Source of the DNA: an uncultured Erysipelotrichaceae bacterium
GTDB lineage: Bacteria; Bacillota_I; Bacilli_A; RF39; UBA660
Reading direction: 5' to 3'
Length of the DNA: 64,000 bases
NCBI GenBank assembly: GCA_902767245.1
Contig: CACXGO010000029.1
Coordinates: forward strand, 31,598 to 95,597
Notes under the pieces: model-generated
What the model was told of the DNA's origin: nothing
The model's database searches: none
Seen by the model: only the letters and a program-made list of their open reading frames with translations
Shown here: positions 5,141 to 56,894 of the stretch, in pieces
Position numbering within the stretch: position 1 is the first letter of the stretch
Layout: each line of letters opens with the position of its first letter
Position numbers and translations under genes: made by a program

Positions 5141-6364
5141 TTATCTTTGAATATTAACTTTTGTTCCCACATGGCAATGATCATAGGTAAAAGATGCATC
5201 TTTTAAAGCCATACTTATACATCCATGACTTTTAGGTGTACCCATCTTTCTATTTTCTATATCATGAATCCCAATATTACCACTAATTTGCATCCAATAG
5301 TTAACCCAGACTTCATAATCAGGCCCTATTAAATAACAACCTGGAGTCTTACATTCTATTTTATATAATCCTATTGGTGTTGGCGAGGAAGATTTTCCTG
5401 TACTGACCAAAGTACATAAAATAATTTCATTATTTTGATAAAGTTTAAATTTTTGTTCTGAAAGATCAATAATAATACAAGGATCACCTAATGATTTAAC
5501 TTCATCTTTTAAAACATAACCAACTTCTTGCCCAACTTTTACTAAATAATATCTGTTTACTTCAGCTAATACCTCTGCTGATTCATAGACTTCTAAATTT
5601 TTAATTCTACTACTTGATGAATTTGGTTTTTGAAGTAAAAATGAATTATTTTTCATCGAAACAATTTTTTGAATTTTTAAATCTTTTATTTCAGGATAAG
5701 TACTTTCAATTTTACTTCTTAAAGACTTTGTATATTGACTACATACATATCCAATACACCCATTATATTTAGCTAAATACCAATCATTATTAGTTCTACC
5801 AAAAACTTCAATTTCGGAGTTTTTAGGAATGAGCATTATTTTATTATAATCATTTACTTCAGGTGATAATCTAAAATTTACACCTGTAGTGGCATACACT
5901 ATATCTAAATCTTCAACATAACTATATAATGAATCACCTATATAATCTACGTCCAAAAATTCTGATTTAATGAAACAAAGCATTCGCCCCACCAATACTA
6001 ATGACCAATCTTTATATTCGGCAACACAAGTACATTTGTCACCTTTATTTAATTGACCTAAAACTAGAGATTTAGTATTTGTATCAAGACGCATATTAAC
6101 ATTATTTGCATTAACAATTTTACTCACATTACATGCCTTTAAATTACCTGTTTGTAATACACTAGGAGCAATGGTAGCAACTGGTACTTCTAACTTTGTA
6201 GAACTTGGTACTGGTTTATATTCAGTTGCCTTTAAATATAATACCGTACTATCAGGATTAACTATTTTATTATTTTGTTTTGGTTCATTTTTAGTACAAC
6301 CCGTTAGTCCACCAAACATAGCAAGTAAAAATGCAGCAATTTTTTTGTTTTTCAATTTCAACAT
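5141..6364 (-). CDS. Lipoprotein with SH3b-like repeats and a C-terminal L,D-transpeptidase (YkuD) catalytic domain
   Basis: Signal peptide with lipobox LTGC. C-terminal ...GIHDIENRKMGTPKSHGCISM carries the H...GC catalytic motif of L,D-transpeptidases. Confidence 0.7.
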   Translation of the reverse strand: MLKLKNKKIAAFLLAMFGGLTGCTKNEPKQNNKIVNPDSTVLYLKATEYKPVPSSTKLEVPVATIAPSVLQTGNLKACNVSKIVNANNVNMRLDTNTKSLVLGQLNKGDKCTCVAEYKDWSLVLVGRMLCFIKSEFLDVDYIGDSLYSYVEDLDIVYATTGVNFRLSPEVNDYNKIMLIPKNSEIEVFGRTNNDWYLAKYNGCIGYVCSQYTKSLRSKIESTYPEIKDLKIQKIVSMKNNSFLLQKPNSSSSRIKNLEVYESAEVLAEVNRYYLVKVGQEVGYVLKDEVKSLGDPCIIIDLSEQKFKLYQNNEIILCTLVSTGKSSSPTPIGLYKIECKTPGCYLIGPDYEVWVNYWMQISGNIGIHDIENRKMGTPKSHGCISMALKDASFTYDHCHVGTKVNIQR

Positions 6365-44931: not shown

Positions 44932-45558
44932 TTACATATCTATTTTACTGAATAGCTTAGCAATTTTTTCTTTGCTGAAAAATACTATTAATAATGAAAT
45001 TATTGTATAAACAAAAGCTAGAAGAACATCTTCAATTACATGTTGCTTTATAAATAATGTTGACAAAACAATTACTAATGAATACATAATAATTAAAACT
45101 TTACATTTAGAATTAATATTTCTAGATTTTGCTATATAAAAAGCGGTTATAAAACAATATACACAATGCATTGATGGTAAACAATTAAGTGGTGGATTAT
45201 CACTTTGATATGTAAAATTTAGAAGCCAATCGGTTATATTTTTTACTTCGACTGTTGGTCTTATAATCATACTTGGATAAATAATAAATGTTATTTGTGA
45301 TAATAAAGCCCCAATCAACATTGTCATAATTAAATATTTAAAAATTTTATTATCATATTTATATATTAAAAATGTAGTCAATATGATGAATGGATACCAT
45401 GAATCATAAACATATACAAATGACTTTACTAAAGGAATATCCACAATAGAATTAATTATATGATATCCGCTTGAAAAATGTTTGGTTAAATAATATAGGA
45501 GTGCTTGTGATCCCATTACAAAAATAATTAAAATAAAATACTTCTTATACTTCTTCAT
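44932..45558 (-). CDS. PAP2-family membrane phosphatase
   Basis: Multi-TM with PSMHCVY (PSGH-like) motif. Confidence 0.6.
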   Translation of the reverse strand: MKKYKKYFILIIFVMGSQALLYYLTKHFSSGYHIINSIVDIPLVKSFVYVYDSWYPFIILTTFLIYKYDNKIFKYLIMTMLIGALLSQITFIIYPSMIIRPTVEVKNITDWLLNFTYQSDNPPLNCLPSMHCVYCFITAFYIAKSRNINSKCKVLIIMYSLVIVLSTLFIKQHVIEDVLLAFVYTIISLLIVFFSKEKIAKLFSKIDM

Positions 45559-45595: not shown

Positions 45596-46405
45596 TTAAG
45601 AATTTTCTAAATCTTTTTCAGTTTTAACATTTATTGAACCTATCCCACCATTAATTTTAATAGTGTTAATACCATTACCAATTGTTGTATCATCTTTAAC
45701 ACTTTTTCCATTAAAATTAATGCTACCTATTCCTTTATTAAAAACTATCTTATAATCTTCTCCTAATAAAGATAATTTAATTGAACCAACTCCTGATTCA
45801 ATTTTACTATCACCAGTAATTTCAGCTTTAATTTCTAAATTACCAACACCAACTTCAATTTTAGCATCATTTAACTTACCAGCTTTAATAATAAGTTCTC
45901 CTGCGCCAGTTTCAATTTTAGCATTATTACTAGCAATCTTATTTATAGTTGTTTTGCCAGCTCCAAGCATTAGTTTTAAAGAGTCAGTTTCAAGAGATGC
46001 AATGCTTAGTTTACCTGCTCCTGTCTCAATTCTAACATCATCAAATTTTAAATCTTCTGGTACATATAAAATTACACTTGATAGTTTTGAATTAAAATAC
46101 CATCTTTTAGCTTTTTCTTCAATAATAATTTTATTCTCATTTTCACTTATTTTAATATCTTCACTATTAGATTCAACTTTTAATTTTTCACCTTTTTTTA
46201 TTTCTAAATTACTTGCAGATAATTTAATGTCTAAGTATGATGATAAACTATCTAATTCTTTAGTATTATATTTAGTGGATTCTTCTCTAATAAATGAACC
46301 AGTAATTCCTCTTCCTACATTTATAATTGTATTTATAACTGCAAAAATAATGAAAATTGCAAAAGCTATTGCTACATATTTAATTACTTTTTGAAAAGTT
46401 GTCAT
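45596..46405 (-). CDS. DUF4097 beta-repeat protein (LiaG-like), membrane-anchored
   Basis: N-terminal TM followed by repeated TGAGxLxI / GxGxIxI beta-solenoid repeats. Confidence 0.5.
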   Translation of the reverse strand: MTTFQKVIKYVAIAFAIFIIFAVINTIINVGRGITGSFIREESTKYNTKELDSLSSYLDIKLSASNLEIKKGEKLKVESNSEDIKISENENKIIIEEKAKRWYFNSKLSSVILYVPEDLKFDDVRIETGAGKLSIASLETDSLKLMLGAGKTTINKIASNNAKIETGAGELIIKAGKLNDAKIEVGVGNLEIKAEITGDSKIESGVGSIKLSLLGEDYKIVFNKGIGSINFNGKSVKDDTTIGNGINTIKINGGIGSINVKTEKDLENS

Positions 46406-47079
46406 TTTATTGTTACCCCACCAAATATTGAATTTGCATTAATATAAATTGTTTTAGCATCATTCTTAGCTTCAGGTTCTTTTTTATTTGATACTCCACC
46501 AAATATCGAATTTGATTTAATCTTTATTTTGACATTATCAGGAACAAAAATATCTATTCCACCAAAAACACTAGTTGCATTTATTACAACATCTTCTTTA
46601 ATTTCTGCTTTTCTTAAATCAAATTTGATGCCTCCAAAAACAGCATTTAAACTTGTACCTTTAAATTCATCATCTACTTTAATATCTTGACCAGAAAAAG
46701 TTGCAGCAAAGCTATTATTTTTATTTAACTTTTTATTTAGTTTATCGATGTTTTTATTTACTTCTTTATTAACTGTATTTTTAAATACCAATGATAAACC
46801 AATGATAATGATAATAATTGGTAAAAGTAATTCCCATATTATATCAAAGTCAATAATTTTACGGCAAGCTAAAAGTAAAAGTACACCGATCGTCAAAACA
46901 ATAAGATTTCCTTTTTTATCATCTTCAGTAATAAATCCAATTAAAGCTGGAATTATAATAAATAAAGTCCACCATCCTCTAAAAAAGATGTTTACATTAA
47001 ACAAATTTAATGCATTACCTCCTAAAATAACACCAATTGCAATTAAAACTAAACCCCAAACAATATTTCTAATTTTCAT
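46402..47079 (-). CDS. LiaF-like membrane protein (N-terminal TM segments plus C-terminal DUF2154 beta domain)
   Basis: TM region, then repeated SVFGGIDI / SIFGGV motifs typical of LiaF/YvqF. Confidence 0.5.
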   Translation of the reverse strand: MKIRNIVWGLVLIAIGVILGGNALNLFNVNIFFRGWWTLFIIIPALIGFITEDDKKGNLIVLTIGVLLLLACRKIIDFDIIWELLLPIIIIIIGLSLVFKNTVNKEVNKNIDKLNKKLNKNNSFAATFSGQDIKVDDEFKGTSLNAVFGGIKFDLRKAEIKEDVVINATSVFGGIDIFVPDNVKIKIKSNSIFGGVSNKKEPEAKNDAKTIYINANSIFGGVTIK

Positions 47080-47138: not shown

Positions 47139-47765
47139 TTAAATATTTTTGCTTTTTATTGGCACCAAGGCTTCATAAAATAGTAAAGCTGTTTCTCCAG
47201 GAAACATATGAGCTACTTCAATATTTTTATTAAGTTCTTCAGGTGGTATTAAACGCCAATCAAGTTCAAACTTATTCTGACCTTTAGCAAGTGTAAATTC
47301 CCTTACAAATTCTCTAATTACTCTACCATTACCTTCTCTAAAAGGATGACAATAAATAAGATTTGTATATAAATAAGCTAAAGCATATGCAAAATCATAT
47401 TTTGTTTGACTCTGATCTAATTTTTTTCTTACTTCATCAAAAATATAATCTAAATAATCTGGAATAGTTTTATCATCTTTAATTGATAAAAAACTTCCCT
47501 TTTCTTTAATTATATTTACAAAACGATAATCTCCTGCAAAAGGATATATTTCACCAAAAACAAACTTGTGTAAAGCTTTCAAGTGTTCTTTATCAAAGCC
47601 CATTTCTAATGGTTTTTTATTAAGTTCAAGTAACTTCTCGAAAGTGATAGTTGCTTCTACCTCTTTTAATTTTTTTTGATCAGTTATCCCAAAATTATTA
47701 ATTAAGACGCTTGTTTCTGGATAAAAATATTTACTCCATAATATTTCATTTTCTTTGTCCGTCAT
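47139..47765 (-). CDS. fic: Fic/Doc-family protein (Fido domain)
   Basis: HPFREGNGRVIREF matches the Fic active-site motif HPFx[DE]GNGR. Confidence 0.8.
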   Translation of the reverse strand: MTDKENEILWSKYFYPETSVLINNFGITDQKKLKEVEATITFEKLLELNKKPLEMGFDKEHLKALHKFVFGEIYPFAGDYRFVNIIKEKGSFLSIKDDKTIPDYLDYIFDEVRKKLDQSQTKYDFAYALAYLYTNLIYCHPFREGNGRVIREFVREFTLAKGQNKFELDWRLIPPEELNKNIEVAHMFPGETALLFYEALVPIKSKNI

Positions 47766-47907
47766 TTTGAACTCCTAGTTTTAAAGTAAAAGGATCTTCA
47801 CATTTTTCATCTTCTAAAGCTGTTACTACGGTTGCTTTTATATAAGGAATATCCTCACTATCAAATAAAGCTAACACCTTGGTAATAGATTCGCTATCTG
47901 TAATCAT
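47746..47907 (-). CDS. Small acidic ORF (53 aa) overlapping the fic start; candidate Fic antitoxin; not in the ORF track; coordinates +/- 1 nt
   Basis: MITDSESITKVLALFDSEDIPYIKATVVTALEDEKCEDPFTLKLGVQNDGQRK. AGGTGA RBS 5 nt upstream; its 3' end overlaps fic by ~20 nt in another frame, the same arrangement as E. coli yhfG-fic. Confidence 0.4.
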   Translation of the reverse strand: MITDSESITKVLALFDSEDIPYIKATVVTALEDEKCEDPFTLKLGVQNDGQRK

Positions 47908-48029: not shown

Positions 48030-48683
48030 TTAATTTTCTTTTTTCATTTTATCTAAAACCATTTTAAATGTATATAAAAGTGCAATTGAGAATATTACAC
48101 CACCAATAATATCAGTAAACCAATGAACTCCTGAAATAATTCTTCCTCCTATTATACTAACAATTAAAACAATTGAAAGAATATTTTCATATTTTGCAAT
48201 CTTGAATTTTTTAAATAGTTGATTATTTATAATAATTGAACTTCCACAAAGGCATATTGATAAAATTGTATGTGATGATGGATAAGAAGCCTCTAAAATG
48301 CCATCAATCAAAATTGGACGATAATTAATAATTACTTTTTCAAAAAATACATATAAAATAATTACTACTACATAAAAAACACCTAAAGCAATTATTTCTT
48401 TATCTACTTTTAATAAACTTTTCCTTTTAATAACTTGAATTAAACCAATTAAAGCATAAATAAGTGCCATTAAAATTGCAATATAACCTAAATATTCAGT
48501 TATTTTATAAAATGTCATATTGCTACCAATCAACTTAGATATAAACCCATTTAAACTTGCAAATCCAACTTTAGAATCATTTGGTCCAATTGCTTGAACA
48601 TCAACTATTTTAACTAGTAAAGTATAGATAATAGCTAAAAATAGTAATATTCCACTTACCATAAAATCTTTTTTCTTTTTCAT
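48030..48683 (-). CDS. PAP2-family membrane phosphatase
   Basis: SYPSSHT (PSGH-like) motif; multi-TM. Confidence 0.55.
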   Translation of the reverse strand: MKKKKDFMVSGILLFLAIIYTLLVKIVDVQAIGPNDSKVGFASLNGFISKLIGSNMTFYKITEYLGYIAILMALIYALIGLIQVIKRKSLLKVDKEIIALGVFYVVVIILYVFFEKVIINYRPILIDGILEASYPSSHTILSICLCGSSIIINNQLFKKFKIAKYENILSIVLIVSIIGGRIISGVHWFTDIIGGVIFSIALLYTFKMVLDKMKKEN

Positions 48684-48749: not shown

Positions 48750-50213
48750 TCAATGAAGATTTATAGGATTATCAAGATTATCATGTATTTTATATACTAA
48801 ATCATGATCAACTAATACTAATGGATATTTTTTAAACCATTCAGGAACATTTATTATACCTGCATCGTGATAGTCATCCAAAAGCATTGCATTGTCTCCT
48901 GCATCACCATAAATTAAATTATCTTTCGAATAATATCCCAATCTTGCTAGTTCTTTTTTAAACTCAGTTATGACATATCCAGGTATATTTTGAGCTGATC
49001 TTCTTAAAAATTTTTGAACCTCAATTCCACCTGTAACTGCACCACCATATTTTCTTAGTAAAACTTCTTCTAAATTAGGTAAAATTAAATATAAATCAGG
49101 GCATATAACTTTTTCACGTGAATATTTATAGTGCACTAGTTTAAAGGCATATTCTCCAATTTTATAGCAAGAAGCAGTAGTTCCTTCTGCAATAAATCTG
49201 CAAGTTTTATTATGACTTAAATCTAAATACTTTGAAACATATTCTTCTAACAATCTTGTTAAGCCAAATCTATCCAATTTTTCATAATTATCATCAATAT
49301 CGCGAAGTTTTTGAAAATAACTTAATTGCTTTTTATATGCTTGCAATAATTTTAAAGATATCTTATTAGAATAATTTTTATACATTTGCACGCGAGCAGT
49401 TGCAGCTGTTTTAAAATAGGTGTCTGCATCTTTATAAAATTCTTCTATTCCTTCAAGATTTGGTTCATATTTAGATAAACAATCATTTTTAATTTCTTTC
49501 ATTTTTATTAAAAAGTGCCCAAGATTATTATATTTATAGTTTTTTAAAATAAATTCTTTAAACTTTTTATAAAGTTCATAATTATTTGCTTCGAATACAG
49601 TATAAGCAAGTTCAGATATATCTTCCACTCTCATAAAAACTGGTAGAAAAGTCGTTTGTTCATATTTTTTATAAGTAACACTTGTTAAATATTTAGTAAT
49701 ATCATCATAGAAAAATGTTATTTTATCTTTTTTATTTTTAACTAAATATTTCATAAATAAAAATCTTATATGTAAATTAGAATAAATTGAAAGCTTTTTG
49801 AGCAAACTTTTACAAATATCAAAATGATTGAATAAATAGTCAAAAATAAAATTTAAGTCATTTTGATAAGTTAATAAGATTAAATCAAAGTTTTTCTTTA
49901 AATAATCATAACCTAAAGAACAATTATCTAATAAGTTAATTAAATATTCTCGTGGCAAAACTTTTTCACCAAAGCATTTTTTAATTAAATATCTAGAATC
50001 AGCTTTATATTCTTCCATATCATACACAATTTCAAAACAAAAACGGTAAAAATATTTATTAGTTTTTAAAATTGGTAAAAAACCATCAATTATATTTTTC
50101 CTACGCTCTGAATTTCTAACTAACTTAACTAAGTGATTATAATCAAAATTAGTTAAATGATACATAAAATCAACTTTTCCTTGTTCTAAATATTCAAGTG
50201 GATTAAAACACAC
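48750..50213 (-). CDS. Hypothetical protein with C-terminal protein-kinase-like (APH/CotS-like) domain
   Basis: C-terminal ~170 aa: GTTASCYKIGEYAFKL (G-loop plus AxK), YGDAGDNAML (HGDxxxxN-like catalytic loop), LVLVDHDLV (DFG-equivalent). N-terminal 320 aa helical, unknown. Confidence 0.35.
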   Translation of the reverse strand: MCFNPLEYLEQGKVDFMYHLTNFDYNHLVKLVRNSERRKNIIDGFLPILKTNKYFYRFCFEIVYDMEEYKADSRYLIKKCFGEKVLPREYLINLLDNCSLGYDYLKKNFDLILLTYQNDLNFIFDYLFNHFDICKSLLKKLSIYSNLHIRFLFMKYLVKNKKDKITFFYDDITKYLTSVTYKKYEQTTFLPVFMRVEDISELAYTVFEANNYELYKKFKEFILKNYKYNNLGHFLIKMKEIKNDCLSKYEPNLEGIEEFYKDADTYFKTAATARVQMYKNYSNKISLKLLQAYKKQLSYFQKLRDIDDNYEKLDRFGLTRLLEEYVSKYLDLSHNKTCRFIAEGTTASCYKIGEYAFKLVHYKYSREKVICPDLYLILPNLEEVLLRKYGGAVTGGIEVQKFLRRSAQNIPGYVITEFKKELARLGYYSKDNLIYGDAGDNAMLLDDYHDAGIINVPEWFKKYPLVLVDHDLVYKIHDNLDNPINLH

Positions 50214-50297
50214 AATTATCCCTCCTTTTTTAAGCCATATTATAAATTAATAATTAATATTTGTAAACATAAACAAAAAAAATAATGCTTTGTTGCA

Positions 50298-51176
50298 TTA
50301 TTTCTTATTATATTTTACATGATTATCATCTAAAAACTTCATAATTGCTTTTGATGATATAACGACTCCTAAATTTATAAATTGTTTTTCAGAAGCATGT
50401 ACTTCCTTATTATTACGGATTACATTTGTTTCAATATCAAACATCAAATCTAAACTTGTTGTTGCTGATTGAATACCTAAAATATCACCATCAGTATTGA
50501 ATACTGGTCCTCCACTCTGACCTTTTAAACCAGGTGTAGTTGTTTCAAATGCAAATTCGCATCCGTTTTCATCTGAAATTGTTCGTGTTATCATTCCATC
50601 AATTGGAAATGCTGGAGTTTCAAATGAAGCTGAATCCTTGATTTCAATTTCATTTGTTTTAGAATTAAACTGAAAGCAATCATAAACTGGCCATGGAAAA
50701 CCAAGTTTACAAATAGATTCACCAGATTCAATATCTTTATCTGTAAATACTGGGAAATCATCAGTCCCTACACTTTTAAAATTAGTAAATTTTATTAAAG
50801 CAAGATCATAATTATTATGAAATAATATTTTTTCTAAAACTCCATTTTCAAAACAATTCATAAATATGTTTTTTATTTGAACAATTTCATTTTCTTTATA
50901 ACCATATTTTTTTATCAAAGATTTATTTTCTTTTCCTTCTTTTAAAAATGATTTATATTTGTTTTCTAATTCCTGTGCAAGTATTATTTGCTCTGCTACA
51001 TGTTTACAGGTTAAAATATACCCTTCATCATTTAAAATAATAAATGAGCTAATTCCTGAATTAACTTTTTCTTCATGAAAAAGTCTTTCTCCTGTAAATA
51101 GTGGTCTAGTATAATTAAGATTTTTTTTAATTGCTTTTTTAAACATGTCTACCTCCATTAATTTTAAAAGTTTCAT
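50298..51176 (-). CDS. Trypsin-like (S1 family) serine protease, cytoplasmic
   Basis: Catalytic triad candidates in the canonical order: TCKHVAE (His), NYDLALIKF (Asp), GQSGGPVF (Ser). No signal peptide. Confidence 0.55.
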   Translation of the reverse strand: MKLLKLMEVDMFKKAIKKNLNYTRPLFTGERLFHEEKVNSGISSFIILNDEGYILTCKHVAEQIILAQELENKYKSFLKEGKENKSLIKKYGYKENEIVQIKNIFMNCFENGVLEKILFHNNYDLALIKFTNFKSVGTDDFPVFTDKDIESGESICKLGFPWPVYDCFQFNSKTNEIEIKDSASFETPAFPIDGMITRTISDENGCEFAFETTTPGLKGQSGGPVFNTDGDILGIQSATTSLDLMFDIETNVIRNNKEVHASEKQFINLGVVISSKAIMKFLDDNHVKYNKK

Positions 51177-52194
51177 CTAATATAGGATTATTACATTCAT
51201 CTTTTTCTTCTATTTTTAGATATAAATTCATATCATTTTCACTTGGATAACTTGTTATATTGATCCCGCTATGATGATATGCAAGCCTCAATAAAGTTCT
51301 TGTCAATTTTTCAGTTAAATTGCTTTGAATAAGTTCATGATTTGATAGTAAACTCTCTCTTTTTTCTGAATCATAATCATAATATTCGCTTTTTATATCA
51401 AAGGAAATTTCTTTTGAATTCCACCTGATTGGTAAAATTGATGGAACAACAATTTTAGTTATTCCTTTTTCTTTTAAAATTCCTGTTAAAATATTTACTG
51501 CAAGCAAAAATGAATGCGAAATGTCTTTTAAATTACCAATATCATAATTTTCAAAATTATCATTTTTAACGTCAAAATTAGTATCAAGCTTATAGAGATT
51601 TCGTTTTATTTTTTTGGCATCACTTAAGCCTTCATTTTGGATAGCATAGATGTAAGCTTCATTATTTATTATTCCAACATAAATATATGGTAAATCCATA
51701 CTTTCATTTAATGAGGTCAAAGTAATTTTTATTCTATATGGAGTTTCATTTACAATATCACTTTTTTCACATTTTACTATAATATCTAAATTTAAAAGTT
51801 CACTTTTAAATTTTTCAGCTATACTTGGTAACAATTGATCTTCTAAAAAAGCAATTCTTTTCTGTAAAAATTGAATAGGATTTTCAAAATCATCATAAGT
51901 GGCATTAGCAAATAAAAATGATAAAAGTGTTTTTATTTGTGATTCAACTTCTAAATATCCTAAGTCATAAAATGACATTGCTTCAAATATATATCTTGAT
52001 AATAATAGATCAAATGTCTTTTTATCTGATATTTTTAAAGTAGGAATAATTGTATTAATGTATTTTTTGGCCTCAATTTTTCTTTCACCAATTAAAGCAT
52101 TAAATAAAATATTATACCTAAAATCACTTTCAACTTTACCTTTTTGAACTTCTTTTAAAAATTTGTTATAAAAAATATCTAAAACTTTATCCAT
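51139..52194 (-). CDS. Hypothetical protein
   Basis: 351 aa ORF overlapping the protease gene start by 38 nt; no recognisable motif. Confidence 0.3.
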   Translation of the reverse strand: MDKVLDIFYNKFLKEVQKGKVESDFRYNILFNALIGERKIEAKKYINTIIPTLKISDKKTFDLLLSRYIFEAMSFYDLGYLEVESQIKTLLSFLFANATYDDFENPIQFLQKRIAFLEDQLLPSIAEKFKSELLNLDIIVKCEKSDIVNETPYRIKITLTSLNESMDLPYIYVGIINNEAYIYAIQNEGLSDAKKIKRNLYKLDTNFDVKNDNFENYDIGNLKDISHSFLLAVNILTGILKEKGITKIVVPSILPIRWNSKEISFDIKSEYYDYDSEKRESLLSNHELIQSNLTEKLTRTLLRLAYHHSGINITSYPSENDMNLYLKIEEKDECNNPILDETFKINGGRHV

Positions 52195-52201
52195 TATTCA
52201 C

Positions 52202-52783
52202 CTACTTTAAATTAAAATACTTCCTTAATTCAATTATAACGGTTTTATGATAAAAAATAAACAAAATTAAAAGTGCAAATAGACTTACAGATCCAAGGAC
52301 TATAATCGGCCAGTTAATTTTAACAATACCACAAAGTGATAAAATAAAGTAAATAATAGAACAAATAGTAGTTATAAATAATGTAACGACTTTCTTTTTT
52401 TGATAATTAAAACTTAAGAAAAACAAAAGTAACTGAATTAAAACAATACTAAATGCAACTATTCCAATAACAAAGTAAGACCACTTTGTTTTATTAATAA
52501 AATCAATTATATATAAGTAACCACAAATTTGAAACAAAACAACTGTTAATCTTTTAACTAATGAGCTATCAATTAAAGGAAAATTTAAAAAAGCATAATA
52601 GAATATTATTTCACCACCAATAACATAAAGCATCCAATATTTTCCACCTACCGCTAAGTTAACAATAATTACTGTCACCGCTGAAACCAAAAATAATAGC
52701 AACATTATTCTTCTAAAAATTAAATATTTATTTAATTTTTTTTTAATCAATGGATAATCATTTTCTATTTTCATAGTTTTCAC
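52202..52783 (-). CDS. Hypothetical membrane protein (about five TM helices)
   Basis: 193 aa, hydrophobic; overlaps the upstream 491 aa gene by 26 nt. Confidence 0.3.
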   Translation of the reverse strand: MKTMKIENDYPLIKKKLNKYLIFRRIMLLLFLVSAVTVIIVNLAVGGKYWMLYVIGGEIIFYYAFLNFPLIDSSLVKRLTVVLFQICGYLYIIDFINKTKWSYFVIGIVAFSIVLIQLLLFFLSFNYQKKKVVTLFITTICSIIYFILSLCGIVKINWPIIVLGSVSLFALLILFIFYHKTVIIELRKYFNLK

Positions 52784-54233
52784 TCCCGTGTACTTTAACG
52801 ATTAAATTATTTTCTTTAAAAATACTATATAGATTATTCTCAATTGAAGTATTAGTTGTATATTTAGACATTGTCAAAGTTGTAATATTATTAATTGTAA
52901 TAAGTGAAAATAGCATTTTATTACTAATAGTAGTTCCTAAAATAAAATCAGCACTTTTTATATGTTTTAAAACATTTTCAGGTAATTTTACTACCCCTAA
53001 ATTTGATAAAACCGTTGTTTGTGATTTATCTCCAATAAATCCATAAATAAAATTAGCAATAGGTCTTTTAATAAAAAGTGGAATTAATTTTAATGATCTA
53101 ACTAATTTATTGGACTCACGCATAACTTCGTTAAGCTTATTTCTGCTCAATTTTTCTTGACTTTGATACTTTACTTTTTTAATTACATCTTCAAATGAAG
53201 TTACTTCGCTTTTTTTTATGCTAATATTATTATATAAAGAAAAATTCCTTAATGTATTTGATTTATAATATTTTCGCATATTTACTGGGACTTGAATTTT
53301 AATAAATCCTTCTTTACTAGTTGAATATGAAATAACTAAAAAAAGATAGCTTAAAATTAGTTCATTAACTGTTAAATTATATTTATGAGCTAAAGACTTT
53401 AGTTCTTTTGTTTTAAGATCAAAATGAATTATTTGACATGGTCTTATCTTAGAAAGTTTACCATCGATCATCAAAGCTTTTTTATCAAGTAAACTTCCCT
53501 TTTTGCTTTCTATTTTTTTGTCAATAAAATCATCTTTTAGCTCTTCAACTTTGACTTTTTCATTTACATCAAATACAAGATCATTATAGTTTACTTTTTG
53601 ACCGAGTAAATTTAAATATTCTGAAACTAATGTTGAAAGAAACACAATTCCACCATAAGCATCAGCTAATATATGAAATACTTCAACACTTATACGATTT
53701 TTATAATACAAAACTTTAAAAGATGGTTTACCTATCTTTGAAATATTTATATAACTACATGGTACTTTACTATCTTCAACAACTTTAAAATATTTTTTTA
53801 TTTCATCAATATAATGCCAGAAAAAACCTTTTCTAATTGATGTCCTAAAAATGGGAAAACGTTTCATTGTAAATAATAATGCCATTTGTAACACTTCAGG
53901 TATAATATTATCATTTAAGTAATAAGAAATTCTGTAAACACTCATCCAATTTTTTTTCATAGAAAGTGGATATATTTTTGCAGAATTATCAAGTGGATAC
54001 CAATTATGTGGTTTATCTTTATAAATTGTTCCCAAGTTTTCAACTGCCAAAATTTTGATTATTTCGTTAATACTTTTATTTTTATAAAAATATAGAATAG
54101 CTTTTTCATAATCATCAATTAAAAGTTTTGTTTCCTTTTTCGATAAATCTATATTTTTTAATAAATTGTCAAAGAATTCACTCAATATTTTTTGTTCATC
54201 CTGTTTAAATTCGTTTAAAAAAGATTCATTCAT
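52758..54233 (-). CDS. HxxxD-motif acyltransferase-like protein (CAT/condensation-domain superfamily, AATase/WS-DGAT-like)
   Basis: 491 aa with FHILADAYGG (HxxxDxxG) at ~residue 185, as in CAT-fold acyltransferases. Confidence 0.4.
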   Translation of the reverse strand: MNESFLNEFKQDEQKILSEFFDNLLKNIDLSKKETKLLIDDYEKAILYFYKNKSINEIIKILAVENLGTIYKDKPHNWYPLDNSAKIYPLSMKKNWMSVYRISYYLNDNIIPEVLQMALLFTMKRFPIFRTSIRKGFFWHYIDEIKKYFKVVEDSKVPCSYINISKIGKPSFKVLYYKNRISVEVFHILADAYGGIVFLSTLVSEYLNLLGQKVNYNDLVFDVNEKVKVEELKDDFIDKKIESKKGSLLDKKALMIDGKLSKIRPCQIIHFDLKTKELKSLAHKYNLTVNELILSYLFLVISYSTSKEGFIKIQVPVNMRKYYKSNTLRNFSLYNNISIKKSEVTSFEDVIKKVKYQSQEKLSRNKLNEVMRESNKLVRSLKLIPLFIKRPIANFIYGFIGDKSQTTVLSNLGVVKLPENVLKHIKSADFILGTTISNKMLFSLITINNITTLTMSKYTTNTSIENNLYSIFKENNLIVKVHGSENYENRK

Positions 54234-54284
54234 TCTTTCACTCCTATATTAAAAGAGCTCTTTAAGTGAGCTCTTTTAAATGTA

Positions 54285-54758
54285 TTAATAATTAGGATTA
54301 TATTCAAATTTAGTAACATTCATTGCATCAACATCATCATAGATAACTTTAAAATTCCAAGTCTTTTTGGCTCCTAATCTTTGAATATATGTACCCGCTT
54401 CACCTAAAACTTCCCCAGATTCATTATATAAATAGTAGCTAATATCAATTCCATTATAATCTTTATCAGTATTATTTGTTAACTTACCTTCTATATAATA
54501 TGCTTTTTTTTCTTCATTATAATATCCTTTAACATCTTTTTGAACTGTCAATTTTTTCTTATCAATTTGAATTGAACCATCATCCATTACCTTATATTCA
54601 ACATTAAATCTATCTGTAATAAGTGCAATTGTAAATAATCCAATTGGAACTATGTAATATAAGCATCCTAGGACTACCAATGCAATTATCCATTTTGATG
54701 TTTTCTTTTTTGGTTCAAAGTTAGTTTCTTCTTTTACTTCAGTTACTTCTTTACTCAT
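54285..54758 (-). CDS. Membrane-anchored beta-sandwich protein (DUF4352-like)
   Basis: N-terminal TM, then a Tyr/Asn-rich beta domain. Confidence 0.35.
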   Translation of the reverse strand: MSKEVTEVKEETNFEPKKKTSKWIIALVVLGCLYYIVPIGLFTIALITDRFNVEYKVMDDGSIQIDKKKLTVQKDVKGYYNEEKKAYYIEGKLTNNTDKDYNGIDISYYLYNESGEVLGEAGTYIQRLGAKKTWNFKVIYDDVDAMNVTKFEYNPNY

Positions 54759-55010: not shown

Positions 55011-56894
55011 TTATTTTGAAATCATTTCAGCAATTAAATTACTTATTTCAGTTGGATTTTCTATTGGTAATCCTTCAATCAATCTGGCTTCTGAATAAAG
55101 AACTTTAGCATATTTTTTTAGTTCATTTTTATCTGTCTCATAAAGAGATTTTAATTTTTTGACAATTTTATGTTTACTATTTATTTCTAAAACTAATGAA
55201 GCATTAATATGTTCATCTGTTGGCATTGCATTTATTACCTTTTGCATTTCAACAGATACTTCCCCTTCAGTTGTTAAACAAACTGGATGACTAGAAAGTT
55301 TATCAGTTAAACGAACATCAACAACTTCACTGCCAAGTGATTTTTTTATGAAGTCTAATATTTCTTTATTATCTTTATTTAGTTTTTCAATTTTCTTCTT
55401 ATCTTCTTCTGAACTAAAATCAGTTTGGGCATCACTTACATTTTTAAACTCTTTGTCCTTATATTTATTTAATATTTGAATTGCAAATTCATCAACATAA
55501 TCAGTTAAATATAAAATGTCATAACCCTTTTTCTTAACTTGCTCAACTTGAGGTAACATATCAATTTTTTGGATAGTTTCACCGGACACATAATAGATTG
55601 CTGTTTGATCTTTATCCATATTTTCAATATATTTATCAAGCGTAATAAATTCTTTGGCATTTGCTGAATAAAATATAAGTAAATCTTCTAATTTTTCTTT
55701 ATTCATTCCATACATATTATAAATTCCATATTTAATTTGATTACCAAATGCTTTAAAGAATTTTTTATAAGTTTCAAAATCATTTTTTTGCATGTCCAAA
55801 AGCTCATTATGAATTTTAGTTTCAAGTGATTTTGCAATTTGTTTAACATTTTTATCATTTTGTAAAGTTTCTCTTGAAATATTAAGACTTAAATCATCTG
55901 AATCAACTACACCTTTAACAAAACTATAGTAATCTGGAAGCAATTCTTCACATTTATCCATAATTAATACTCCGTTTGTATAAAGTTGAAGTCCTTTTTT
56001 ATATTCTTTTGTATAAAAATCATATGGAGCGTGAGATGGAATATATAATAGTGCCTTATAACTTTGAAGCCCTTCAACATTCATATGTATTACTTTCAAT
56101 GGTGCTTCATAATCATAGAATCTTTCACTATAAAAATTATGATATTCATCTTCAGTTATAGTTTTTTTATCTTTCTTCCAAAGTGGAGTCATACTATTTA
56201 AAACTGCAATCTCGTGAACAGTTTCATACTTATCTTCTGTTCCTTCAACTAGTTTGCTATTTTCAACCTCCATTTTAATTGGATACTTGATATAATCGCT
56301 ATATTTTTTAACTAAATTTCTAATTTTATATTCTTCTAGATACTCACTATATTTTTCATCTTCGGTATCATCTTTTAAGTAAAGTTTGATTGTGGTTCCG
56401 ACATTTTCCTTTGCTACTTCTTCAATGGTGTAACCATCAACACCTTCACTTGCCCACATATAAGCATTATCACTATCTGGAGTTCTTGATATTACTTCAA
56501 CTCTTTTCGAAACCATAAAAGCAGAATAAAATCCAACTCCAAATTGACCTATAATTGATACATCTTCTTGATTTTCATTTTCTTCTTTAAATTTTAAAGA
56601 TCCTGATTCAGCTATAACACCTAAGTTATTTTCAAGTTCATCTGCACTCATTCCACAGCCATTATCTTTAATTGTAAGTACTCTATTTTGACTATCTCTT
56701 TCAATAATTATTTCAAGTTTATCCTTATCAATTTTTAAATTTTTATCAGTAAGTGAGCGATAATAAACTTTATCAATAGCATCACTAGCATTACTAATAA
56801 GTTCCCTTAAAAATATCTCTTTATTTGTATAAATTGAATTAATCATTAAATCTAAGATTCTTTTAGATTCTGTTTTAAATGCTTTCTTTTTCAT
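55011..56894 (-). CDS. htpG: Molecular chaperone HtpG (Hsp90)
   Basis: GHKL ATPase N-domain (LRELISNASDA, GQFGVGFYS); 627 aa. Confidence 0.9.
   Translation of the reverse strand: MKKKAFKTESKRILDLMINSIYTNKEIFLRELISNASDAIDKVYYRSLTDKNLKIDKDKLEIIIERDSQNRVLTIKDNGCGMSADELENNLGVIAESGSLKFKEENENQEDVSIIGQFGVGFYSAFMVSKRVEVISRTPDSDNAYMWASEGVDGYTIEEVAKENVGTTIKLYLKDDTEDEKYSEYLEEYKIRNLVKKYSDYIKYPIKMEVENSKLVEGTEDKYETVHEIAVLNSMTPLWKKDKKTITEDEYHNFYSERFYDYEAPLKVIHMNVEGLQSYKALLYIPSHAPYDFYTKEYKKGLQLYTNGVLIMDKCEELLPDYYSFVKGVVDSDDLSLNISRETLQNDKNVKQIAKSLETKIHNELLDMQKNDFETYKKFFKAFGNQIKYGIYNMYGMNKEKLEDLLIFYSANAKEFITLDKYIENMDKDQTAIYYVSGETIQKIDMLPQVEQVKKKGYDILYLTDYVDEFAIQILNKYKDKEFKNVSDAQTDFSSEEDKKKIEKLNKDNKEILDFIKKSLGSEVVDVRLTDKLSSHPVCLTTEGEVSVEMQKVINAMPTDEHINASLVLEINSKHKIVKKLKSLYETDKNELKKYAKVLYSEARLIEGLPIENPTEISNLIAEMISK

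Follow-up and report, generated by a model that had tools for sequence, protein, structure and literature searches.

Condensation/CAT-type acyltransferases, among them the condensation (C) domains of nonribosomal peptide synthetases (NRPS), PapA5 (1q9j), TRI3 (3fot), the BAHD enzymes and the yeast-type alcohol acetyltransferases (PF07247), share a two-lobed fold and the HxxxD(G) motif. Both features recur in a 491-aa protein encoded in a 64,000-nt stretch of contig CACXGO010000029.1 from an uncultured Erysipelotrichaceae bacterium (referred to as the window; positions are counted along this whole stretch unless another locus is named), where its gene belongs to a block of five genes on the minus strand (48750-54233). 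Unlike the known condensation/CAT enzymes, the 491-aa protein has no carrier, adenylation or polyketide partner nearby, possesses a 75-aa helical N-terminal extension and is obligately coupled to a 193-aa membrane protein of the DUF6320 family (PF19845). In the literature on DUF6320, PF19845 and PF07247, nothing was found on this bacterial pair and no function is described for DUF6320; the acyltransferase/DUF6320 module is catalogued yet uncharacterised.

Two further products of the block can be compared with described proteins. A 292-aa protease shares the Trypsin_2 domain, the H/D/S triad and the GQSGGPVF motif with the HtrA/DegP proteases (S1C), from which it differs in having neither a PDZ domain, a signal peptide nor a transmembrane (TM) anchor and in scoring far below the equivalog cut-off. 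The C-terminal domain of a 487-aa protein can be aligned with the small N-lobe and catalytic core of minimal kinases (NleH/OspG, RIO-like and APH-like phage kinases), including the glycine loop, Lys, Asp/Asn and Asp positions. Unlike these kinases, however, the domain shows no predicted alphaC helix, a 10-residue gap between the Asp and Asn positions and an early end, and it is preceded by an alpha-solenoid of about 330 aa. The remaining gene encodes an orphan protein of 351 aa.

A preliminary description, made from the window alone, had interpreted the five genes as one operon encoding a five-part system. This interpretation is refuted by the finding that the gene set does not co-occur elsewhere; the block is not a new five-part system. 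Instead, we assign a probability of roughly 70% to the block being a lineage-specific juxtaposition of separate genes, with the acyltransferase/DUF6320 pair as the sole genuine functional unit. There is no case for pursuing the five-gene set as a potential novel pathway or as a defence module.

A strictly conserved acyltransferase/DUF6320 pair

The stand-alone acyltransferase gene (52758-54233, minus strand) is the first gene of the pair. As had already been recognised, its product bears the HxxxDxxG motif of the CAT/condensation superfamily in the sequence FHILADAYGG, located at residues 186-195, with the codons of the catalytic HxxxD element (H187-I-L-A-D191) at positions 53661-53675 of the minus strand. 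H187 and D191 are invariant among 47 homologues, and G194 is conserved in at least 90% of them. The AlphaFold2 (AF2) model (predicted local distance difference test, pLDDT, 88.4; predicted template modelling score, pTM, 0.91) agrees with this assignment and consists of the 75-aa extension, folded into three helices, and a two-lobed catalytic body. When compared with the PDB by Foldseek, this model retrieved 249 matches at E ≤ 1e-3, among them NRPS C domains, TomBC, TRI3, SgcC5, PapA5 and BAHD enzymes at E-values from 1e-15 to 1e-12. Judged by its model, the 491-aa protein is an acyltransferase of the condensation/CAT type with a two-lobed CAT-like fold.

Assignment to one of the named subgroups was not obtained at the level of sequence profiles. 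The 491-aa protein does not match the NRPS condensation domain (PF00668), and 11 of its 47 relatives do so weakly. The same holds for AATase (PF07247), which is found in three of the 47 relatives with a best E-value of 0.0025 and not in the protein itself, while PapA_C (PF16911) is present in two relatives, again with weak E-values. PDB sequence searches with the 491-aa family, both single-sequence and profile-based, returned chance-level matches only. Besides, neither carrier-protein nor adenylation families are among the recurrent neighbour families listed around the pair. A likeness of the N-terminal extension to a DUF1700/HAAS-type domain was considered and dropped after Pfam gave no such match for the protein or its 47 relatives.

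The second gene of the pair (52202-52783, minus strand) encodes a clear member of DUF6320, scoring 62.8 bits against PF19845 (cut-off 29.9) and covering profile positions 1-186 of 186. It belongs to a subfamily without the N-terminal zinc ribbon seen in the proteins from Bacillus cereus and Anaerotruncus. While the membrane nature of this partner had been described correctly, the number of TM segments had been given as five; hydropathy and the positive-inside rule indicate that about six, with both termini in the cytoplasm, are most likely. Conserved residues are Y10, P11, N42, G46, G47, W50, D94 and W158; polar residues are few among them, and an obvious catalytic set is not discernible. According to gene calling and homologues, translation probably starts at position 52774 (MKIENDYP), which shortens the overlap with the acyltransferase gene to 17 nt.

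A profile built from the 491-aa family was run against one genome per species and detected at least 550 loci with a relative, and the best 80 loci were analysed by tblastn. At every one of the 77 testable loci, i.e., those among the best 80 with downstream DNA, the acyltransferase gene is followed by an ORF (open reading frame) of about 190 aa with five to six TM segments that starts M-K-I-x-I-T-Y-P and mostly overlaps the acyltransferase gene, usually by 11 nt. The species-level Bacillota genomes with a relative, at least 550 in number, come from Bacilli (including RF39-like "Tenericutes" bins), Erysipelotrichaceae, Oscillospiraceae, Christensenellales and others. A recurrent third partner of the pair was not found among 75 upstream and 66 downstream loci: neighbours are heterogeneous, the most frequent families being metK upstream (directly adjacent at 5 of 75 loci, e.g., L003-L005) and Abhydrolase_3 downstream (4 of 66). 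At some loci, a CDP-alcohol phosphatidyltransferase gene is likewise found downstream of the pair.

The same pairing is encountered at 28% identity on plasmids of B. cereus/thuringiensis and Anaerotruncus colihominis. There, the genes are annotated as "alcohol acetyltransferase" ("hypothetical protein" in Anaerotruncus) and "DUF6320 domain-containing protein", the former being a PGAP/NCBI name given by annotation and not a test of activity. An alpha/beta hydrolase is encoded upstream of the plasmid pairs in both B. cereus and Anaerotruncus, and a gene of the diacylglycerol-kinase family lies downstream of the Anaerotruncus pair. In this distant subfamily, the enzyme has no N-terminal extension, and DUF6320 bears an N-terminal CxxC...CxxC zinc ribbon (genes at 5245-5952 in locus L143 and 5282-5944 in L144). 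Between the acyltransferase/DUF6320 subfamilies, the additional cytoplasmic module has seemingly moved from one partner to the other, and the presence of the ribbon where the enzyme lacks its extension is consistent with a complex at the cytoplasmic face of the membrane.

The acyltransferase and the DUF6320 protein with its six or so TM segments probably constitute a translationally coupled pair acting as one functional unit, in which the soluble enzyme may dock on the cytoplasmic face of its membrane partner. His187 of the HxxxD motif would serve as general base in acyl transfer from a common thioester, presumably acyl-CoA or acyl-ACP (acyl carrier protein), to a hydroxyl or amine group on a membrane-embedded acceptor, for which a lipid or lipid-linked envelope molecule appears to be the most likely candidate. 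Carriers of the pair include organisms that can be cultivated (B. cereus group plasmids, A. colihominis and Ihubacter sp.), so that lipidomics on a mutant lacking the pair could reveal its product.

The five-gene arrangement and its distribution

Within the window, the five ORFs are present as described before, all on the minus strand, and the overlaps of 38 nt between the 351-aa and protease genes and of 26 nt between the DUF6320 and acyltransferase genes were confirmed for the longest ORF starts only. As for DUF6320, the start of the protease gene is probably located further downstream, at M11 by homologue alignment, resulting in an overlap with the 351-aa gene of just 8 nt. Such packing is not peculiar to the block. 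The window has 48 ORFs with a length of 180 aa or more, of which 45 are on the minus strand, and several other adjoining gene pairs show short overlaps as well. Since strand bias and overlaps are general here, co-orientation and tight packing are uninformative on operon structure.

Among the best 80 loci with a 491-aa relative, the protease and 487-aa genes follow the acyltransferase pair at a single one and the 351-aa gene at none (tblastn). All five genes are carried by L001, which is the same contig again. In L002, encoding an acyltransferase 71% identical to that of the window, the order is acyltransferase, DUF6320, protease and a 482-aa gene, without the 351-aa gene, and L015, L096 and L098 are arranged in the same way (pair, protease and a gene of the 487-aa family). 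Locus L014 shows obg, a 357-aa gene, the protease and a 484-aa gene and lacks both acyltransferase and DUF6320, while L025 has kept the pair, has a 62%-identical protease 4 kb away among unrelated genes and has no 487-aa gene. At acyltransferase identities of 55% and 45%, the pair stands alone amid unrelated genes. The five-gene order is consequently not kept beyond close relatives.

The 351-aa gene is found in unrelated contexts at five of six loci, where it occurs without the other four genes (L011-L013, L145 and L146), i.e., after a GT2 glycosyltransferase gene, before metK, after an iron-dependent alcohol dehydrogenase gene (Fe-ADH) or near htpG, and beyond the close clade it is never accompanied by the other four. 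This gene is thus best described as a variable insert that does not belong to the conserved pair. A metagenome scan with the 487-aa family gave 48 loci, 36 of them testable for protease adjacency. The 487-aa gene stands alone at 31 of these 36; the protease gene precedes it at the remaining five, all from the closest clade. A recurrent neighbour was not found: the 66 neighbours of the 487-aa gene match 86 Pfam families, none of them more than twice, and three long contigs carry the 487-aa family gene alone. We regard the 351-aa, protease and 487-aa genes as independent; their position next to the pair is limited to a single narrow clade of gut Bacilli with low GC content.

Upstream of the 487-aa gene, an intergenic gap of 84 nt (50214-50297, minus strand) contains several potential signals. 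A hairpin (AATGC/GCATT) followed by T8 (50284-50299, minus strand) overlaps the protease stop codon and is too weak for the terminator scan; a promoter-like TTTACA-17-TATAAT element (50267-50239, minus strand) matches 11 of 12 consensus positions; and a GGAGG sequence (50225-50221, minus strand) precedes the GTG start codon. Going by these signals, the 487-aa gene probably has its own promoter and may represent a separate transcription unit, in keeping with its solitary occurrence at other loci.

Several points weigh against the block being a mere juxtaposition around an acylating pair. In the closest clade (the window, L002, L015, L096 and L098), the protease gene directly follows the pair, and the 487-aa gene follows the protease gene in all six close relatives, including L014, so that a functional link limited to this clade is conceivable. 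The promoter and hairpin upstream of the 487-aa gene are consensus matches in AT-rich DNA and no commoner than in shuffled sequence. Regarding the pair itself, the 491-aa protein stays below every Pfam acyltransferase threshold and passes no NCBIfam threshold either. Moreover, the lipid hints for the acceptor stem from a minority of loci, and the binding of the acyltransferase to DUF6320, like the identity of donor and acceptor, is something we infer.

The clade-limited adjacency would be accounted for by a young clade-specific operon, in which the protease, perhaps together with the 351-aa and 487-aa proteins, had been co-opted for regulating or processing the acyltransferase/DUF6320 machinery. 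This would fit with the protease gene lying within about 16 nt of the DUF6320 gene in L002 and adjoining it in L015, L096 and L098, with the overlap of the 351-aa and protease genes in both the window and L014, and with the adjacency of the protease and 487-aa genes in all six closest relatives. However, L014 holds the 351-aa, protease and 487-aa genes without the pair, L025 holds the pair with a distant protease and no 487-aa gene, each component is found alone beyond the clade, and the packing itself follows the general pattern of the window. We therefore consider such an operon unlikely, albeit less so than the other alternatives.

Far less probable is an anti-phage defence or stress island with the protease and the kinase-like protein as effector and sensor, one of the functions suggested in the preliminary description. 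PADLOC gave weak matches for the protease domain (RT-Protease_XI, 3.7e-6; PDC-S45, 2.6e-4), and a Fic toxin gene as well as a LiaF-like/DUF4097 gene pair are located just downstream of the block. In contrast, the other four proteins have no PADLOC match, phage searches returned nothing for the 487-aa protein or the protease, and an acyltransferase relative is found on one viral contig among 2.9 million. Moreover, the pair occurs in varied housekeeping contexts across hundreds of species, no defence-type gene recurs next to the 487-aa gene, and the GC content of the block (0.21-0.26) is only slightly lower than that around it (0.24-0.27), without a marked shift. A mobile or phage origin, also considered, was dropped, as the phage and viral searches with the 487-aa protein, the protease and the acyltransferase gave almost nothing.

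The protease, the 351-aa protein and the kinase-like 487-aa family

The protease gene (50298-51176, minus strand; probable true start at 51146 with MFKKAIKK) encodes a trypsin-like enzyme with the H, D and S residues in canonical order and no signal peptide, as reported before. The protein matches Trypsin_2 (PF13365) with an E-value of 9.7e-11 and 43 bits (cut-off 27.6), the triad residues H59, D124 and S221 are invariant among seven homologues, and the N-terminus is not hydrophobic. From its sequence features, the protein is classified as a cytoplasmic serine protease of the S1 (chymotrypsin) fold. A PDZ domain, a signal peptide or a TM anchor was not found in it, and against the HtrA/DegP equivalogs it scores 29 bits, with cut-offs of 416-470; accordingly, it does not belong to HtrA/DegP. 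Its weak matches in PADLOC and PHROG concern the protease domain only.

The ORF of the 351-aa protein (51139-52194, minus strand) is an orphan without recognisable motif. In agreement with the preliminary description, searches of Pfam, NCBIfam, PADLOC, PHROG and PDB sequences yielded nothing for it. Its family comprises 113 clusters; a Pfam scan of 46 relatives gave no recurrent family, and matches to PDB sequences were at chance level only.

The 487-aa ORF (48750-50213, minus strand, longest start) had been proposed to encode a minimal APH/CotS-like kinase in its C-terminal part. The kinase-like character of this part is confirmed by its fold, whereas a match to APH/CotS was obtained neither for the protein nor for 51 relatives. 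According to the AF2 model (pLDDT 93.2) and DSSP, residues 1-333 (49215-50213, minus strand) are all helices, forming an alpha-solenoid-like N-terminal domain, and residues 334-475 (48789-49214, minus strand) a small beta-rich domain. In a Foldseek comparison with the PDB, 48 of the top 50 matches are protein kinases at E-values from 4e-3 to 5e-2 and a probability of about 1, with alignments of 160-190 columns; CDK7, ERK2, PKR and CK2 are among them, as is NleH2, a minimal effector kinase. The sole non-kinase matches correspond to the helical Get4. Among the viral models of BFVD, APH-like, RIO-like and minimal kinases of 146-180 aa were retrieved. The C-terminal domain is thus modelled as a protein-kinase-like core fold with a truncated C-lobe, supported by modest E-values of 1e-3 to 5e-2 across PDB and BFVD.

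Within this domain, K358, D431, N441, D469 and D471 are invariant among 51 homologues. G344 and G353 would form the glycine loop, K358 would be the beta3 lysine, D431 and N441 the Asp/Asn pair and D469, together with D471, the DFG-like position. Between beta3 and beta4, no alphaC helix is predicted; the spacing from D431 to N441 is an atypical 10 residues instead of five, and the chain ends about 18 residues past D469. The 487-aa protein is probably an ATP-dependent phosphotransferase.

A sequence-level link of the 487-aa family to any kinase family was not found in Pfam, PDB sequence and profile searches. The protein itself has no match in Pfam (none at E ≤ 1), NCBIfam, PADLOC or PHROGs; APH/CotS (PF01636) and other kinase families are absent from the Pfam matches of the 51 relatives, among which no family is recurrent; and PDB sequence searches, single-sequence and profile-based, gave chance-level matches only. 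Alignment of the family with CDK2 by hhalign, using an approximate CDK2 sequence, matched the glycine loop alone at a probability of 0.7%. The family comprises 125 clusters at 90% identity, and a profile search of 1.84 billion representatives recovered 219 clusters at 50%, all of the same architecture and none of them linked to a canonical kinase. The 487-aa protein hence represents a small orphan family of kinase-like fold that is not a shown member of any named family. Its compact kinase-like core makes it of interest for cataloguing atypical kinases in gut Bacilli. An action on the neighbouring HtpG in the manner of the HopBF1 kinase was also considered and dropped, as htpG is near the 487-aa gene at none of the 48 metagenome loci.

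The other function previously put forward, modification of the spore coat or the envelope by a pathway that includes a coat kinase of the CotS type, might draw on the kinase-like fold, on a 487-aa homologue about 5 kb from spore germination genes in L008 and on the suitability of an acyltransferase with membrane partner for envelope chemistry, but appears improbable given the lack of any APH/CotS or other kinase-family match in the 487-aa protein and its 51 relatives, the closed family of 219 clusters, the missing linkage to the acyltransferase pair outside one clade and neighbours that are not sporulation genes.

Going beyond the juxtaposition of separate genes, a tentative and somewhat doubtful extension would see in the pair a machinery for membrane acylation that is widespread in Bacillota, works on its own and may make or modify an envelope lipid not yet assigned and, at the same time, in the 487-aa protein the founder of a new family of bacterial kinase-fold enzymes whose C-lobe has largely given way to an alpha-solenoid, a family confined to uncultured gut Bacilli. 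Neither the pair nor the 487-aa family bears on a long-standing open question.

Genes and sequence elements around the block

The block had been described as lying between genes for a PAP2 phosphatase and HtpG. Both flanks are present, the PAP2 gene (48030-48683, minus strand) at the end of the 487-aa gene and htpG (55011-56894) on the other side, although a further gene intervenes before htpG. It is located directly upstream of the block (54285-54758, minus strand), encodes a single-TM membrane protein of 157 aa with an FxLYD domain and accompanies the acyltransferase in the closest clade only (L001, L002 and L015). Between the FxLYD and acyltransferase genes, a perfect 10-bp inverted repeat, AAAAGAGCTC-N7-GAGCTCTTTT, is found (54251-54277, minus strand). 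It is positioned 17 nt upstream of the acyltransferase ATG, has no T-tail, was not flagged by the terminator scan and might attenuate or stabilise the transcript.

Besides the cases in which metK directly precedes the acyltransferase pair (6868-7962 in L003-L005), metK is found just downstream of 351-aa homologues in L013 (7199-8284) and L145 (6736-7830). In L146 (7014-8894), a distance of 900 nt separates htpG from a 351-aa homologue, and in the window htpG is close to the block as well. These positions suggest that the genes share an old chromosomal neighbourhood, the metK/htpG region, rather than a function.

On the other side of the block, a gene for a Fic-domain protein of 208 aa (47139-47907, minus strand) is located between the 487-aa and PAP2 genes and a LiaF-like gene. 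With an E-value of 1.8e-29, the protein matches a model for adenylyltransferase toxins of the VbhT type but stays far short of its cut-off, and a 53-aa ORF overlaps the start of its gene by 20 nt, so that the two may form a toxin-antitoxin pair of the FicTA type. The LiaF-like gene, whose product is a membrane protein, overlaps with a gene for a DUF4097 protein (45596-47079, minus strand). Elsewhere, the LiaF-like/DUF4097 pair is located at 7521-8977 in L099, directly after the 487-aa homologue, and at 14432-15906 in L002, two genes further on; on the B. cereus plasmid, a DUF4097 gene (2760-3578 in L143) directly precedes the acyltransferase and DUF6320 genes. This proximity could be residual synteny or reflect an envelope-stress link. 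The Fic, LiaF-like and DUF4097 genes are flanked by two genes for PAP2-family membrane phosphatases within 4 kb, at 44932-45558 and at 48030-48683 (both minus strand). The window as a whole has a GC content of about 24% and a GC skew that is negative throughout, typical of a chromosome arm of low-GC Bacilli.

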